A stretch of DNA of 64,000 nucleotides from an uncultured bacterium (GTDB taxonomy: Bacteria > Omnitrophota > Gorgyraeia > Kaelpiales > Kaelpiaceae): positions 13,526-77,525 of the forward strand of contig CBEUCN010000001.1 of the NCBI GenBank assembly GCA_965541635.1. Direction: 5' to 3'. How positions within the stretch are numbered: position 1 is the first letter of the stretch; every line of letters begins with the position of its first letter. The position numbers and the translations under genes were made by a program. Shown one piece after another: positions 23,643 through 33,047 of the stretch. A model generated the notes under the pieces. It did no database searches. It saw only the letters and a list, made by a program, of their open reading frames with translations, and was not told where the DNA came from.

Positions 23643-23864
23643 TTAAATAAGAAGAACCAGAAAAGAAACAACAATAATTGCAACTAATATTATCATCCAC
23701 TTAGGGAAAGATGACTTAGCAATTTTATTACCGCAATAATAGCATAATAAAGCATCATAGGGTATGAGATTTTTACAATGAGGGCACTCCACCATGTGAT
23801 TGAAATCCAGATTTTCTGGTTCTTCAGTTACTTCCTGATAGTCAAAATAATCCTCAACCATCAT
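23643..23864 (-). CDS. small zinc-ribbon protein with a C-terminal transmembrane helix
   Basis: 73 aa with CPHC...CYYC and a hydrophobic tail MIILVAIIVVSFLVLLI. It overlaps the LOG-family gene by 4 nt. Confidence 0.5.
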   Translation of the reverse strand: MMVEDYFDYQEVTEEPENLDFNHMVECPHCKNLIPYDALLCYYCGNKIAKSSFPKWMIILVAIIVVSFLVLLI

Positions 23865-26533: not shown

Positions 26534-27004
26534 CTATTTTAACCGCATGATTATTTCCAGTAAACTCTTTCTTCTGGCTTTGGGGATTTGCACCTCGACT
26601 ATACTATTCTGATAGAAACCGCACCCCACTACATTACCATCATAATTTAAAGCTACATATCCAGGAGTCAATTCCTGATTATAGATTATTCTGCCCCGCA
26701 ATAAAATCTCTTTAAGATCACCGAGGTTTAAATTCACAATATTTCTGGTTATTCTGTGGCCAAGATAAATCAATCCCCAGGAAGTTGGTTTTAAACTTTT
26801 TCCTAACTTCCGAACAAACGGGAATCCCAAACTGGAAATCTTATCCTCAAATGCCACATCAAGATTTAAAATAACAGGATTTATAATCCATCCCTTATCT
26901 TTTCTAAAGAATATAGTGTGTTCTATCCAGAAAGATTCCGGAATACCAAACCTCCTTAAGAAATAGTCTTTAACCTCCTCAAGATAATTTTCTGAGTTTT
27001 GCAA
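26534..27004 (-). CDS. C-terminal (RNA-binding/PUA-like) portion of a split NOL1/NOP2/Sun RNA m5C methyltransferase gene
   Basis: This frame opens only 26 nt before the methyltransferase-domain ORF ends, and the reported start codon is TTG. It would fuse in frame with 26979..27869 by removing one A in an AGAAAAT run. Confidence 0.5.
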   Translation of the reverse strand: MQNSENYLEEVKDYFLRRFGIPESFWIEHTIFFRKDKGWIINPVILNLDVAFEDKISSLGFPFVRKLGKSLKPTSWGLIYLGHRITRNIVNLNLGDLKEILLRGRIIYNQELTPGYVALNYDGNVVGCGFYQNSIVEVQIPKARRKSLLEIIMRLK

Positions 27005-27874: not shown

Positions 27875-28507
27875 TTATTCACTAACAGGAAGAGTAATTA
27901 ATTCTATTTCTGAAGGCAGGTTGGATTTAAAGATTTTAAGATCCTGCTCAGACCCTACAATTTTACCATAATGCATGGGAATTACCTTAGTAGCTTTCAT
28001 AATTCTGGCTGCCTGAGATGCTTCTTTTGCATTCATGGTATAGGTACCACCGATTGGCAATAGTGCTATATCTGGCTGTAATCCTTCCATCTCAGGGATT
28101 AAATCAGTATCTCCAAGATGATAAATTTTACTGTCTCCCAGATAAATAATATATCCTACCCAGTTATTGGATCGGGGATGAAATTGTTTATTTATATTAT
28201 ATGCTGGAACTGCCTGGAATTTAATCCCCAAAACTTCGTTTTCTTCTCCCGGCTTAACACATATATATTCACAATCAGACGGGATTTTATCTCTAATATC
28301 CTCAGGGCCTACAACATAAGTTCCTTTCTTTGATATTTTTTCTATATCCTGAAGGGAGAAATGGTCAAAATGAGAATGGGTTACAAATATAATATCTGCA
28401 GGTTTAGGATTTTTAATCTCCCAGGGATCGATATATATTACCTTATCATCGAATGTAATCCTGAAACTGGCATGTCCCAACCATTCAATATTGCCAGAAG
28501 CCAACAT
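27875..28507 (-). CDS. MBL-fold metal-dependent hydrolase (UPF0173-like)
   Basis: HSHFDH metal-binding motif and a beta-lactamase fold. Strong Shine-Dalgarno AAGGAGG 8 nt upstream. Confidence 0.75.
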   Translation of the reverse strand: MLASGNIEWLGHASFRITFDDKVIYIDPWEIKNPKPADIIFVTHSHFDHFSLQDIEKISKKGTYVVGPEDIRDKIPSDCEYICVKPGEENEVLGIKFQAVPAYNINKQFHPRSNNWVGYIIYLGDSKIYHLGDTDLIPEMEGLQPDIALLPIGGTYTMNAKEASQAARIMKATKVIPMHYGKIVGSEQDLKIFKSNLPSEIELITLPVSE

Positions 28508-28510
28508 TAT

Positions 28511-28675
28511 TCATCCCTCCTTCTTTGCTTCCTGTTTCTGCTTAGCATCAAAAGCCTGCCAGCATCTCTTATTACAGAAATAGTTACCATTGCGATAATA
28601 CCACTTTTTCTTACTCAACTTCTTATTGCAATTTTTACAATTAGTTGGTTTTTTTCCCTCTTTTGGTTTAGCCAT
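28511..28675 (-). CDS. 54-aa zinc-ribbon protein with a TRASH/YHS-like pattern (not in the ORF track)
   Basis: Manual translation gives MAKPKEGKKPTNCKNCNKKLSKKKWYYRNGNYFCNKRCWQAFDAKQKQEAKKEG, a C-x2-C-x17-C-x3-C pattern with YFC..C...F. The ATG overlaps the stop of the upstream ORF by 8 nt. The stop lies 3 nt before the MBL start and inside its Shine-Dalgarno sequence. Confidence 0.55.
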   Translation of the reverse strand: MAKPKEGKKPTNCKNCNKKLSKKKWYYRNGNYFCNKRCWQAFDAKQKQEAKKEG

Positions 28676-29630
28676 TTTCTCCTCCCCATTCTTGCTGTTG
28701 CTCTTCCGCTCTCACTTTGACTTCAGAAAGGATATCCTGTGCCTCGTCAATTAATCTTCCAGTTCTTAAAATTATGTATTTGGGCTGATCATTTTTATTA
28801 TAAGAAATCAATTTTACACTTACAGAAATCTTGGAAGTTTGAGGTCCTTGAGGTTTAACCTCAAAATTATAAACAACTCTTCTTTCCTGAAGCGCCCGAA
28901 AATCAGCAAATAACTGGTCTCCAATTCCCATCGGTGCCAGTTTGAACCCTGTAAGTGTTCCCTGCAAACGATTGGACTGAGTAACTATAATTTTATGTTC
29001 ATCCAGAACATCACGAAGTTTGTAAAATGTTATATCCTTGTCAGCATACACATCTATATTCATTTCGGGACCTTCTAGTTTAGAAACCGTTATAATCTCT
29101 TCTAAACTTCGAGGAGGGGCTTTTACTCCTGAAACTTCCTCTCCTTCCTCTCGAAACATTTTTCTAAAAGGCTGGGTCAATTTAGCCCACCATCCTCTCC
29201 TTTTTTTAACGGAAGAAGGAGTTTTCTCCTTTCTGGGGACCTCTCTACCAGATACCGCTGACGGCTGAGGAGTAATTTTTGCAGATGGAGTAAAAGGATA
29301 GATAGTAATTACATCTCCTTCTTTAAGTGAGACTCCCTCCATCAGTTCTAAAATATCACAGGCAGAAATATTATCTTTAACTTTTACCACTTCAATTTTA
29401 CCTATCTCAGCCCCATTTTTAACTATTGCAAAGTCCATTCCAGCAGTTAAGCCATGAATCTTCCCCTGATCTATAACTATAAAATTATATTGTTTATTAT
29501 ATTTTATAATTTTAACTGCCTGGACTTCTTGAGCATAGGGAATTAAACAAATACTCCCTACTATTATTAAACACCAAATTGTTCCTTTAACAAACCTCTT
29601 ATACACAAGATTTATTCTATCATTATGCAT
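28668..29630 (-). CDS. hypothetical membrane-anchored/exported protein
   Basis: 320 aa. N-terminal signal-anchor GTIWCLIIVGSICLIPYA, a small beta-rich domain, a Pro/Ser/Lys-rich linker, and a C-terminal domain of unknown family. No motif I can recognise. Confidence 0.5.
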   Translation of the reverse strand: MHNDRINLVYKRFVKGTIWCLIIVGSICLIPYAQEVQAVKIIKYNKQYNFIVIDQGKIHGLTAGMDFAIVKNGAEIGKIEVVKVKDNISACDILELMEGVSLKEGDVITIYPFTPSAKITPQPSAVSGREVPRKEKTPSSVKKRRGWWAKLTQPFRKMFREEGEEVSGVKAPPRSLEEIITVSKLEGPEMNIDVYADKDITFYKLRDVLDEHKIIVTQSNRLQGTLTGFKLAPMGIGDQLFADFRALQERRVVYNFEVKPQGPQTSKISVSVKLISYNKNDQPKYIILRTGRLIDEAQDILSEVKVRAEEQQQEWGGENG

Positions 29631-29637
29631 TCTATTT

Positions 29638-30576
29638 TCAAGTTCCTAATTTAATACCAGGTGCAATTTTATATCCCGAAAGAAACTCTTTTACTGTCAT
29701 CCGTCTACGAGATTCCAACTGCAATTCCTTAATTGCTAAAGTATTCTTCCCACAAGCAACTTTAAACTCATCACGACCAACTTCTACTATCTCTCCTGGC
29801 TCACCTTTGCAATTAACCTCTACTACCTCTGCCCAGAATATTTTTAAAAGTTTATCCTCAAGATAAGTATAGGCTCCTGGCCAGGGTTGAGCTCCCCTGA
29901 TAAGATTATAAATCTCAAAAGCAGTCTTCTCCCAGTTTATTAAACCGTCTTCTTTTTTAAGCCTGGGAGCATAACTAGGAATCCCTGTTTGGGACTGAAG
30001 ATGGTATTTATTTTCAGCAATCATATTTAATGTCTTAGGTAATAATTCTTTTCCTAAATCACTAAGTTTAGCCTCCAGAGTTATAGCAGTGTCAAAAGGA
30101 GATATTTCACATTTTGCCTGAGATATTATCTCTCCAGCATCCATTTTTTCATTCATTCTGAAAATTGTAACTCCAGTAATCTTCTCCCCATTTATAATAG
30201 CCCAGTTTATCGGTGCTGCTCCCCGATATTTAGGTAAAAGTGAAGCATGAATGTTAATTGCAAATATTTCTGGTATTTTAAGAAGATCTTCTTTAAAAAT
30301 CTGTCCATAGGCGGCAGTAACAAATAGACTAGGATTAAACCTTTTTATAATCTGAATAAATTCAGAGGAGTTTACATTTTGAGGTTGAAAAACAGGCACA
30401 GTTATTTTGTTTGTAAGACAATAATCTTTAACCGCTGTAGATAACATCTTATATCCCCGTCCTCCTTTTCTGTCCGGCTGGGTAACAACTGCAACTAAAT
30501 CATAAATGTTTTGATTACAAAGAAAATCAAGAATGGGAATTGCAAATTTACCAGAACCAAAGAATATTATCCGCAT
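29638..30576 (-). CDS. fmt: methionyl-tRNA formyltransferase
   Basis: N-terminus MRIIFFGSGKFAIPIL, formyltransferase N and C domains, and a position downstream of def. Confidence 0.95.
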   Translation of the reverse strand: MRIIFFGSGKFAIPILDFLCNQNIYDLVAVVTQPDRKGGRGYKMLSTAVKDYCLTNKITVPVFQPQNVNSSEFIQIIKRFNPSLFVTAAYGQIFKEDLLKIPEIFAINIHASLLPKYRGAAPINWAIINGEKITGVTIFRMNEKMDAGEIISQAKCEISPFDTAITLEAKLSDLGKELLPKTLNMIAENKYHLQSQTGIPSYAPRLKKEDGLINWEKTAFEIYNLIRGAQPWPGAYTYLEDKLLKIFWAEVVEVNCKGEPGEIVEVGRDEFKVACGKNTLAIKELQLESRRRMTVKEFLSGYKIAPGIKLGT

Positions 30577-31052
30577 TTATTGAAATATATTTTAAGCAAT
30601 TTCTTTCTTTGCCGAAATGGGATGTGATGGATAAATAATTTACCATTGAGGTGATCTACCTCATGCTGAATAATTCTGGCCAGAAGTCCTGTGGCCTTTA
30701 TAGCTTGCTTTTTTCCATTTATATTTAATCCTTCTACTACTACAGTATTGGCCCTTTTAACAATAGCAGAAATTCCTGGCAAGCTGAGACATCCCTCGAC
30801 ATCTTCAATCCAGCCTCTCTTCTCCACTATTCTGGGATTGAATAACACCAACATATCCTCTCTTTTCATAGAAGGAGAAGCCACAAACACACTTTTACTT
30901 ACTCCTACCTGATTGGCAGCCAGCCCCACTCCTTCATTCTCCAGCATAGTTTCAATCATCTCCCGGACAAGATTTAGTTCCTCCTCCCCTATCTCTTTCA
31001 CCTTGGCAGTCTTCTTTTTCAACACTGGATCAGGATAGGTAACTATTTTCAT
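30567..31052 (-). CDS. def: peptide deformylase
   Basis: GVGLAANQVG, EGCLS, HEVDHLNG motifs. Confidence 0.95.
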   Translation of the reverse strand: MKIVTYPDPVLKKKTAKVKEIGEEELNLVREMIETMLENEGVGLAANQVGVSKSVFVASPSMKREDMLVLFNPRIVEKRGWIEDVEGCLSLPGISAIVKRANTVVVEGLNINGKKQAIKATGLLARIIQHEVDHLNGKLFIHHIPFRQRKKLLKIYFNKCG

Positions 31053-31055
31053 CCC

Positions 31056-33047
31056 TTAATCCTCATAAGGATTTACATCTACAATTAGTTTTACCCCTTC
31101 AAACTGTATTTTAAAACCTATAATGTTATATAATAGACGCAATGTAGAGGCAAGATTTTTAGATTTTATGACTAAATCCCAACGATATTCTCCTCTCAAC
31201 TTTGGAACTGGATGAGGAGCAGGCCCTAAAATTTCAAATTCTTTACCTGCGAATTCCTGCAACAACTGTTGGATTTTATATGCAACCTGTTCTACCTTTC
31301 TCTCTTTCTTATGCCTACACTCCAGTTTTATAAGTTCACTAAATGGAGGAAGCCCCAGAATTCTTCTTCGCTCTATCTCCTGATGGTAAAAGGAAACATA
31401 ATCCTGCCGGAGTGAAGTCTGAATTGTGTAATGCTGGGGATTATAGGTTTGAATAAGGACTCTTCCCTTTCCCCTGCCTCTACCTGATCTTCCTGCTACC
31501 TGAGTAAGAAGAGAAAAAGTTTTCTCACCGGCTCGGAAGTCTATTATATTTAAACTTAAATCAGCAAGAATAACTCCCACCAGATCAACATTAGGAAAAT
31601 CATGCCCTTTAGCAATTATCTGAGTTCCAACTAAAACATCAATTTTATGGTCCCGAAATTCCTGGATAATCTTCTCTAATATCCCCCTTTTTCGTACAGC
31701 ATCAGAATCAAGCCGAGCAGCTGTAATACCAGAGAATAACTTATGAAGTTCACTAATTACCTTCTGAGTACCAAATCCTCGATATACGAGATAGCGAGAC
31801 TGACACTGAGGACAGATAGATAATCGCTCACTGTGATAATTACAATGATGGCAAATAAGTATTTTTCTCTGAGAATGATAAGTGAGTGCAATTTCACATC
31901 GAGGACATTTAGCCACATACCCACACTTAAGACAGACCAGGGAAGTTGAAAATCCTCGTCGATTAAGAAATAGCATCGCCTGAGATTTATTATTCACTAC
32001 TCTCTCAAGTTCAACTTTTAAAGGTTGAGAAAATACCACCGGCTTCAATCTCCTTCTTTTTTGTAGGCGTAAGTCAATTATTTCTACCTCAGGAAGTCTT
32101 TTCTTTTTAATTCTATGGGGAAGTTCCAGAAGTATATAGTCTCCACGCTGGGCTTTATAATAAGACTCCAGACTTGGAGTTGCTGAACCTAAAATCACCG
32201 GACATTTAAAAGTTCGGGCACGAAAAATTGCCAAGTCACGAACATGATAACGAGGACGCTCATCCTGCTTATAGCTGGAATCGTGCTCCTCATCAATTAT
32301 AATCACTCCCAGATCAGAAAAAGGAGCAAATATTGCCGAGCGTGTGCCGATACATATCTTGCTAATTCCATCTTTAATCTTTTTCCACTCCTGAAACCTC
32401 TGGGCTTCTGTAAGGCCACTATGGAATACTGAAATTTCTACTTTTGGGAAACGATTCTTAAATCTGGATATTGTTTGGGGAGAAAGTGCTATTTCCGGAA
32501 CTAAAACCAAGGCTGATTTATTTTTACGGATAGCAAGTTCTACAGTTTGTAAATACACCTCAGTCTTACCAGAAGCAGTAACTCCAAACAGTAAAAATAC
32601 ATTAAAATCGTCAAATTTTTTTCTAATAGTTGCCAATGCTTTCTCCTGAGCAGGGGTTAATTTTTTGGGCCTACGGAATTTCACATCAGGCTTTATAGTT
32701 ATCTGCTTGCGGGGAGTAACTGATTTTTTTCCTTTACGAAGTACACCAGGAAGAGCAGTTTCTATACATTCTCCCCAGCCTGAATAATAATGAATTGCCA
32801 TCCACCAAGTTAACCGCAATATATCTGGATTGATAATCGGTTCACTATCAATAATTTCTATTATCTCTTTTAATTCTTGTGACAGTTGCTTTTCAATTAC
32901 GTCTACCACATATCCTGTTTTTATTTGATTGCGAAACGGTGCCCTAACTCTGATACCTGCAACAATATTATTACCTGAAAGATTTTCAGGGATACGATAA
33001 TAAAATGTTTTATCTACGGGCAAACCAAAGGCAACCTCAACAATCAT
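31056..33047 (-). CDS. priA: primosomal protein N' (replication restart helicase PriA)
   Basis: Walker A GVTASGKTEV, DEEH box, a Cys-rich zinc-binding insertion (CLKCGYV...CPRC...CHHC...CPQC), and a C-terminal helicase domain. Confidence 0.9.
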   Translation of the reverse strand: MIVEVAFGLPVDKTFYYRIPENLSGNNIVAGIRVRAPFRNQIKTGYVVDVIEKQLSQELKEIIEIIDSEPIINPDILRLTWWMAIHYYSGWGECIETALPGVLRKGKKSVTPRKQITIKPDVKFRRPKKLTPAQEKALATIRKKFDDFNVFLLFGVTASGKTEVYLQTVELAIRKNKSALVLVPEIALSPQTISRFKNRFPKVEISVFHSGLTEAQRFQEWKKIKDGISKICIGTRSAIFAPFSDLGVIIIDEEHDSSYKQDERPRYHVRDLAIFRARTFKCPVILGSATPSLESYYKAQRGDYILLELPHRIKKKRLPEVEIIDLRLQKRRRLKPVVFSQPLKVELERVVNNKSQAMLFLNRRGFSTSLVCLKCGYVAKCPRCEIALTYHSQRKILICHHCNYHSERLSICPQCQSRYLVYRGFGTQKVISELHKLFSGITAARLDSDAVRKRGILEKIIQEFRDHKIDVLVGTQIIAKGHDFPNVDLVGVILADLSLNIIDFRAGEKTFSLLTQVAGRSGRGRGKGRVLIQTYNPQHYTIQTSLRQDYVSFYHQEIERRRILGLPPFSELIKLECRHKKERKVEQVAYKIQQLLQEFAGKEFEILGPAPHPVPKLRGEYRWDLVIKSKNLASTLRLLYNIIGFKIQFEGVKLIVDVNPYED

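Follow-up and report, generated by a model that had tools for sequence, protein, structure and literature searches.

Gene content and junctions of the locus

The 64,000-nucleotide (nt) stretch analyzed here (the window, to which all coordinates refer) comes from an uncultured Omnitrophota bacterium and carries three adjacent minus-strand open reading frames (ORFs) directly downstream of priA, def and fmt: X, a 320-amino-acid (aa) protein; ZnR, a 54-aa zinc-ribbon protein; and MBL, a 210-aa hydrolase. An initial annotation had proposed these ORFs, the cysteine spacing of ZnR and the preceding priA-def-fmt order, and all of this was reproduced, the ORFs and spacing from the sequence itself and the upstream genes by Pfam matches and ORFs (Table 1). 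It had also portrayed the trio as an insertion into a def-fmt-sun operon, an account that is appealing but wrong. We find that ZnR represents a small-protein family that has not been described before, belongs to a known fold class and has an unexpected genomic partner, a stand-alone PilZ protein; it constitutes a modest but genuine lead.

The three genes are tightly joined, in the arrangement that the initial annotation had described. The ZnR ATG (28675-28673, inside GAAAATGGCTAA) overlaps the end of X, whose TAA stop lies at 28670-28668, so that the two ORFs share 8 nt, and the Shine-Dalgarno (SD)-like sequence GGGGAGGAG is located 5' of this ATG at 28687-28679. Similarly, the ZnR stop codon TGA (28513-28511) falls between the SD AAGGAGG (28522-28516) and the ATG (28507-28505) of MBL, leaving a gap of 3 nt between the two genes. 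For comparison, we used loci of the same lineage (the window, L001/L002, L003 from Ca. Kaelpia imicola, L004, L006, L008, L009, L011, L014 from Ca. Saelkia tenebricola, L016 and L037), among which L004 and L006 are the metagenome-assembled genomes (MAGs) nearest to the window, with neighboring proteins 72-92% identical to those of the window. Junction spacing was -8 to +5 nt in all seven loci measured: X and ZnR overlap as in the window or are separated by 1-5 nt in L001, L003, L004, L006, L009 and L037, and the ZnR/MBL junction ranges from -8 to +5 nt among relatives. These tight or overlapping junctions are compatible with translational coupling.

The E-W-G codons at the C terminus of X, which are conserved (GAATGGGGAG...; 28676-28690 on the minus strand in the window), double as the SD of ZnR, and the same site is present in L001, L003, L004, L006 and L009. 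As this stretch encodes both a protein end and an SD, it is under dual constraint.

ZnR is a conserved gene and founds a family

We assessed whether the ZnR ORF (protein sequence MAKPKEGKKPTNCKNCNKKLSKKKWYYRNGNYFCNKRCWQAFDAKQKQEAKKEG) behaves as a coding sequence by comparing it with the nearest MAGs. Relative to L006, the 165-nt ORF contains 25 nt differences, 20 of which fall on codon position 3. Read in the ZnR frame, these amount to 18 synonymous and 5 non-synonymous codons, as opposed to 1/22 and 5/19 (synonymous/non-synonymous) in the two alternative frames. L004 differs by 8 nt without a single amino-acid change (seven synonymous codons and a TGA-to-TAA stop exchange). In relatives whose X has diverged to 42-44% identity, ZnR still shares 54-56% of its first 45 residues with the window protein, 20 positions being invariant. 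A profile search of a protein collection (cutoff E <= 1e-3) returned 505 ZnR clusters at 90% identity, conserved over a 45-aa core. The codon-position test and the conservation across relatives thus identify ZnR, at the sequence level, as a genuine gene under purifying selection, which bears out the initial suggestion that the tiny ORF is real. In practice the family is under-annotated, as the ORF is missing from the gene calls of L004, the closest MAG. We also considered a programmed-frameshift X-ZnR fusion and rejected it: X is predicted to be exported, ZnR possesses its own SD and ATG, and most lineages carry ZnR without X.

ZnR appears to constitute an unnamed, undescribed family of small basic zinc-ribbon proteins restricted to the candidate phylum Omnitrophota. 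Scanning one genome per species with peptide patterns yielded 29 ZnR loci, all of them in Omnitrophota MAGs or in MAGs labeled 'uncultured Planctomycetia', which, judging by matching gene order, are really Omnitrophota. In line with this, the 505 clusters are nearly all from Candidatus Omnitrophica; all are named 'hypothetical protein' and none contains a Pfam domain. Two archaeal labels were encountered, on a ZnR family member (P0046, 'Nitrososphaera sp.', on a 1.6-kb contig) and on a protein 98% identical to X (P0001, 'Thermoprotei archaeon', on a contig of less than 4 kb); these contigs probably stem from Omnitrophota and were mis-binned into archaeal MAGs.

Across 30 loci, residues C13, W25, Y26, Y27 and R28 are invariant. 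L038, a locus identified later, carries G at the W position, so that the W is near-invariant and YYR invariant, and the diagnostic motif reads C-x2-C...K-x-W-Y-Y-R-[ND]-G-x-[YF]-[FY]-C-x3-C. The protein in the window is strongly basic (17 K+R versus 4 D+E; isoelectric point 9.9), and the net charge of the 45-aa core ranges from +5 to +10 across the family. The regions flanking the core vary considerably. Tails are missing in the window's genus, the Kaelpia/Saelkia loci L003 and L014 and the related L001, L009 and L016 carry acidic, E/K/V-rich tails of 100-150 residues, and GC-rich lineages have A/K/P/E-rich tails at either the N or the C terminus. An unannotated 54-codon ORF can thereby be placed in a protein family that is defined by a diagnostic motif and comprises both cysteine-containing and cysteine-less forms, the latter described below.

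Gene order within the lineage

The order fmt-X-ZnR-MBL is intact in 12 loci of one Omnitrophota lineage, so the trio is indeed syntenic in relatives. Downstream of MBL, by contrast, the window departs from most of its lineage. Of the ten lineage loci extending past MBL, seven lack a methyltransferase and have PilZ immediately after MBL, among them L001, L003, L009, L011, L014 and L016. A methyltransferase pair is found only in the window, L004 and L006, which removes the basis for regarding the trio as inserted into a def-fmt-sun operon.

The methyltransferase itself is also of a different type than first annotated. Rather than being sun/rsmB-like, it scores 172 bits against the RsmB model TIGR00563 (cutoff 269), aligning with profile positions 159-435, the core only, and passes the nop2p model TIGR00446 with 269.5 bits (cutoff 210). 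It carries the RsmF N-domain PF17125 and is devoid of a NusB-like domain. The 156-aa ORF that follows starts with TTG, is preceded by a GGAGGAG SD of its own, overlaps the core ORF by 26 nt and matches the PUA-like PF13636 below threshold (E 3.6e-4, 21 bits). The identical two-ORF split in L004 and L006 points to a conserved two-piece gene instead of an assembly error. By these profile matches the enzyme is RsmF/nop2p-like and not sun/RsmB. With the def-fmt-rsmB(sun) operon of Proteobacteria and Firmicutes, the locus therefore shares the priA-def-fmt order and a downstream same-strand RNA 5-methylcytosine (m5C) methyltransferase, but differs in that its enzyme is of the RsmF/nop2p type, has no NusB-like N-domain and is split in two. 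As the pair occurs only in the three closest genomes and at this site in none of the other Omnitrophota, which serve as outgroup, it is likely to be a later arrival; the parsimonious reading is that it entered an existing X-ZnR-MBL-PilZ array in the window's genus only.

Table 1. Features of the locus and their positions in the window.
Feature	Position	Strand	Evidence
priA	31056-33047	-	Pfam and ORF
def	30567-31052	-	Pfam and ORF
fmt	29638-30576	-	Pfam and ORF
X, 320 aa, predicted exported or membrane-anchored envelope protein	28668-29630	-	
X/ZnR junction: SD-like GGGGAGGAG, ZnR ATG, X stop TAA	28668-28687	-	
ZnR, 54 aa, C13-x2-C16-x17-C34-x3-C38	28511-28675	-	ORF, codon test, family alignments
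ZnR/MBL junction: SD AAGGAGG, ZnR stop TGA, MBL ATG	28505-28522	-	
MBL, MBL-fold metal-dependent hydrolase, 210 aa	27875-28507	-	Lactamase_B_3 match
RsmF/nop2p-type RNA m5C methyltransferase core, 296 aa	26979-27869	-	TIGR00446
156-aa ORF, weak PUA-like match (RsmF C-terminal domain)	26534-27004	-	PF13636 below threshold
Stand-alone PilZ, 121 aa	26013-26378	-	PF07238

ZnR recurs with a small hydrolase and PilZ across the phylum

Beyond the window's lineage, to which the linkage of X and ZnR with def-fmt is confined, ZnR is not near def-fmt. Placing the neighboring genes of the ZnR loci by homology-anchored mapping revealed the order ZnR-HIT-PilZ in 15 loci, with gaps of a few nt and often followed by an alpha/beta hydrolase, and ZnR followed by PilZ without HIT in four. 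Altogether, a same-strand PilZ orthologue lies downstream of ZnR in 28 of the 31 informative loci (including nine lineage loci), and a second PilZ paralogue is often found upstream. A functional tie to the translation-initiation genes, with which the trio had been proposed to be expressed as a unit, is therefore not indicated, as ZnR resides in ZnR-HIT-PilZ arrays far from def-fmt elsewhere. HIT, HTH_17, AAA_22 (ExeA-like) and alpha/beta-hydrolase neighbors were confirmed by Pfam. In many Omnitrophota loci, the ExeA-like AAA_22 genes are found 1-2.6 kb upstream of ZnR and are encoded on the other strand.

The PilZ protein of the window matches PF07238 with 42.3 bits (cutoff 22.5) and contains both the RxxxR (RRKYFR) and the N-x-S-x-x-G (NLSCGG) motif; RxxxR and (D/N)xSxxG were aligned in the PilZ proteins of 27 loci. 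By profile and motif, PilZ is thus a predicted receptor of cyclic di-GMP (c-di-GMP). MBL matches Lactamase_B_3 (PF13483) with 108.8 bits (cutoff 24), and its H-x-H-x-D-H motif is intact (THSHFDH). It shares this fold and motif with the UPF0173 hydrolases, and its relatives in the PDB comprise 3kl7, TM_1162 and Igni_1254 (E 1e-15 to 1e-26), but with 123.5 bits it falls under the cutoff of 144 of the UPF0173 equivalog NF001911. A tblastn search with a HIT representative detected no HIT gene in the window. Judged by gene order, the stable recurring unit is ZnR plus a small hydrolase plus PilZ, with MBL filling the HIT slot in the window's lineage and ZnR as the gene on which the cluster is anchored.

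X is a predicted envelope protein and a probably replaceable companion

In agreement with the initial annotation, X has no known family and starts with a hydrophobic helix. Scans with Pfam and NCBIfam, which covered the window proteins and 30 ZnR members, gave no match above threshold for X, and a PDB profile search gave none at all. The AlphaFold2 model (predicted local distance difference test, pLDDT, 69) begins with a hydrophobic helix (4-28) and continues with a beta-barrel (37-112), a basic linker that is disordered (114-160) and a helix-grip domain ending in a long helix (162-319). Residues 199-288 match BamC (PF06804) with 12.1 bits, below the cutoff of 25. X lacks a conserved lipobox cysteine and has one helix-grip domain, not the two of BamC/NlpB, and generic SRPBCC folds score equally well or better than the N-terminal helix-grip domain of BamC. 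The barrel may resemble the C-terminal barrel of FlgT, and FlgT_C (PF16538) passes threshold in a barrel-domain homologue; the domain order of X and its disordered basic linker, however, are unlike either BamC or FlgT. Homologues of X begin with MKR... or MYTR..., and X may therefore start at a GTG ten codons in (about 29603) instead of the ATG at 29630.

Searching 1.8 billion representatives with an X profile resulted in 627 matches, about 40 of them full-length. On its own, the barrel is frequent at the C termini of coiled-coil proteins, in which Pfam assigns it to FlgT_C. In P0163 and P0164, it is added N-terminally to type II/III secretins and precedes their N0 domain (35% identity over 88 residues; hhalign probability 97.9%). 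Because the barrel is also fused to secretins, we infer a periplasmic location for X. Distant contexts show X associated with either ZnR or MBL: a distant homologue precedes ZnR in L012, X is followed by MBL with no ZnR between them in L036, and L038/L039 have the order PilZ-X-like-HhH_GPD-ZnR-HIT-PilZ.

These rearrangements bear on whether the trio forms a functional unit at all. X, ZnR and MBL could be unrelated, with their overlaps reflecting genome compaction and their synteny shared ancestry. All window genes between 21359 and 36143 (15 kb) are encoded on the minus strand, and they overlap or are separated by very short junctions; in such a packed, co-directional stretch adjacency alone is weak evidence for shared function in this genome. 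Moreover, X is exported by prediction and ZnR and MBL carry no signal sequences, the partners swap (HIT or MBL; X present or absent; HhH-GPD interposed in L038), and the promoter and terminator scan was uninformative. Yet the ZnR-(hydrolase)-PilZ order persists where ZnR is only 31-60% identical to that of the window and the neighbors are rearranged, and X is again found with ZnR or MBL in L012, L036 and L038, which represent three distant contexts. On balance, we regard the absence of any functional unit as rather unlikely.

Fold of ZnR and the role of its cysteines

An AlphaFold2 model of ZnR, built from a 122-sequence alignment, consists of a knuckle, a beta-hairpin and a C-terminal helix (pLDDT 78). 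Foldseek ranked the TRASH domain of ZMYM5 first (E 0.14, probability 0.94, 29% identity), ahead of many Rlp24/eL24 chains and LIM domains, and no match reached E <= 0.001. Among the 30 scanned ZnR members, Pfam matches remained sub-threshold and were spread over zf-FLZ (20/30), LIM (16/30), zf-FCS (4/30) and YHS (2/30). The best zf-FLZ match among members had an E value of 1.4e-4, the window ZnR scoring 14.9 bits against a cutoff of 23.4; matches to zf-FCS (PF06467) had E >= 0.016 and those to YHS (PF04945) E >= 0.13. ZnR reached no curated-threshold match to TRASH (SM00746), YHS or zf-FCS. Profile matches in the PDB to C2H2 arrays (Aart, E 1e-9) were rejected as repeat artefacts, since they are sums of weak '(E/K)KPxxCxxCxK' knuckle-linker matches, each with E > 10.

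With the TRASH and MYM-type FCS fingers, including the N-domain of eL24/Rlp24, ZnR, going by its sequence and model, has in common a four-cysteine knuckle, an aromatic-F-C-x3-C second half and a subsequent helix. The TRASH spacing is C-x2-C-x19-22-C-x3-C, whereas the window and most relatives have C-x2-C-x17-C-x3-C (x16 in a few). ZnR differs further in passing no threshold, in its invariant YYR, in being strongly basic, in its restriction to one bacterial phylum and in cysteines that are dispensable in some lineages, rather than four conserved ligand cysteines. The TRASH/YHS-like label of the initial annotation thus serves reasonably well as a description of the fold and lapses as a family assignment, all matches being sub-threshold; the models suggest a TRASH/eL24-like protein at the fold level only. 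The closest bacterial model is the PP0621 family (NF041023), which has a C-terminal zinc ribbon: 14 of the 30 ZnR members match its C-terminal 34 positions (best E 1.4e-4 among members; 16 bits for the window ZnR versus a cutoff of 45). Only the ribbon aligns, and PP0621 is itself uncharacterised. Literature searches yielded nothing useful on PP0621 and nothing relevant on Omnitrophota with PilZ or TRASH with PilZ.

The most informative feature in this respect is the loss of cysteines. In 8 of 32 loci (L024, L026 and L028-L033), three of the four cysteines are replaced, as in NCAQTNARIRRKNWYYRNGQYFSSKAAAKAY, leaving the first. These orthologues retain C13 and the WYYR core, are still basic and occur in an unchanged HIT-PilZ context. 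As the YYR motif and the near-invariant W are kept in the cysteine-less forms, zinc would be a structural staple of ZnR and neither a sensed nor a trafficked ligand. This speaks against a classical TRASH/YHS role in metal handling, by which ZnR would act as a metallochaperone or sensor for the metal of peptide deformylase and of the binuclear MBL. Such a role would account for the C-x2-C...C-x3-C pattern with its YFCxxxC signature, which resembles TRASH/YHS, for the TRASH domain as top Foldseek match, for YHS, HMBD and metallothionein among the weak Pfam matches and for the position of ZnR between def and the MBL gene in the window. However, the eight loci have lost three of the four cysteines while keeping everything else, the invariant residues are aromatic and basic instead of ligands, the def/MBL adjacency exists in one lineage only, and YHS matches just 2 of the 30 members. 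We therefore consider metal handling very improbable.

The same cysteine loss invites comparison with ribosomal proteins. The zinc-ribbon ribosomal proteins L31, L33, L36, S14 and S18 have cysteine-containing and cysteine-less paralogues. Like ZnR, they are small and basic, and the protein is retained in lineages in which the cysteines are lost; they differ in having no sequence relation to ZnR, whose two forms are orthologues across lineages and not paralogues within one genome. ZnR could accordingly be a lineage-specific ribosomal or biogenesis protein that binds ribosomal RNA like the N-domain of eL24/Rlp24, its association with PilZ being incidental. The coexistence of both forms, which Makarova et al. 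reportedly described in 2001 as a hallmark of zinc-ribbon ribosomal proteins, is likewise seen in ZnR; its core is very basic, and its neighbors in the lineage include def, fmt, RsmF, a tRNA-binding protein and Era. On the other hand, neither Pfam, NCBIfam nor PDB searches produced a sequence match to Ribosomal_L24e (eL24; PF01246), nor was there one to any ribosomal family, and the fold matches score weakly. Translation genes surround ZnR in this lineage only, the phylum-wide context being HIT-PilZ, and acidic tails as long as 150-200 aa, seen in L003 and L014, are unusual for ribosomal proteins. A ribosomal function thus seems unlikely to us.

A candidate c-di-GMP output

The explanation that we favor, and to which we give an even chance, is that the segment represents one lineage's version of an Omnitrophota-wide ZnR neighborhood, in which ZnR is a binding module working with PilZ. 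ZnR would bind its target through its basic, aromatic WYYR face; the most likely target would be a nucleic acid (probably RNA), with an acidic protein surface as the alternative. The variable disordered tails may tether ZnR, and by working with the PilZ receptor its binding would come under the control of c-di-GMP. The periplasmic X and the hydrolase would be recurrent but replaceable companions.

Several points weigh against this interpretation. The link between ZnR and PilZ is one of gene order and could be explained by vertical inheritance of a slowly rearranging small-genome backbone, all genes from 21.3 to 36.1 kb being co-directional. Three loci (L007, L015 and L018) have no PilZ near ZnR, and X hidden Markov models, both narrow and broadened, run against all six-frame ORFs of the ZnR loci, found X absent within 7 kb of ZnR in 18 non-lineage loci. 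Nucleic-acid binding is suggested by charge and the eL24 analogy only. Finally, the genome scan used two peptide patterns and hence gives an incomplete phyletic picture.

A bolder version, which we deem quite unlikely as it stands, is that ZnR and the stand-alone PilZ together make up a c-di-GMP output module specific to the phylum, in which PilZ, upon binding c-di-GMP, captures or releases a basic, eL24/TRASH-like mini-protein that binds either RNA (of the ribosome or mRNA) or the nucleoid. If true, the second messenger would act directly on translation or chromosome organization in Omnitrophota, the interposed HIT or MBL hydrolase would serve in the turnover of a nucleotide ligand, and the periplasmic X would accompany the module on the envelope side. 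Hardly any of the lineage-specific genes of Omnitrophota, a phylum of uncultured and often ultra-small bacteria that may be predatory or host-dependent, have been characterised. Outputs of c-di-GMP are defined by the partners of stand-alone PilZ proteins, and the putative ZnR-PilZ partnership provides a concrete, testable candidate for such an output.

Other features of the window

Downstream of PilZ, the minus strand continues with genes for a 2-thiouracil desulfurase, a tRNA-binding protein and Era. Screening X, ZnR, MBL and PilZ with the PADLOC models of anti-phage defence returned no match at E <= 0.01. Scanning for promoters and terminators gave about as many matches as in shuffled sequence. 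One promoter-like element, TTGAAA-16-TAGAAT with a TG extension, is located at 29641-29614, the scan as a whole being at chance level. A second small zinc ribbon (73 aa; 23643-23864, minus strand), unrelated to ZnR, combines a Zn_ribbon_3 match with a C-terminal hydrophobic segment and comes after an SLOG/LDcluster4 gene, a position that is kept in the lineage.

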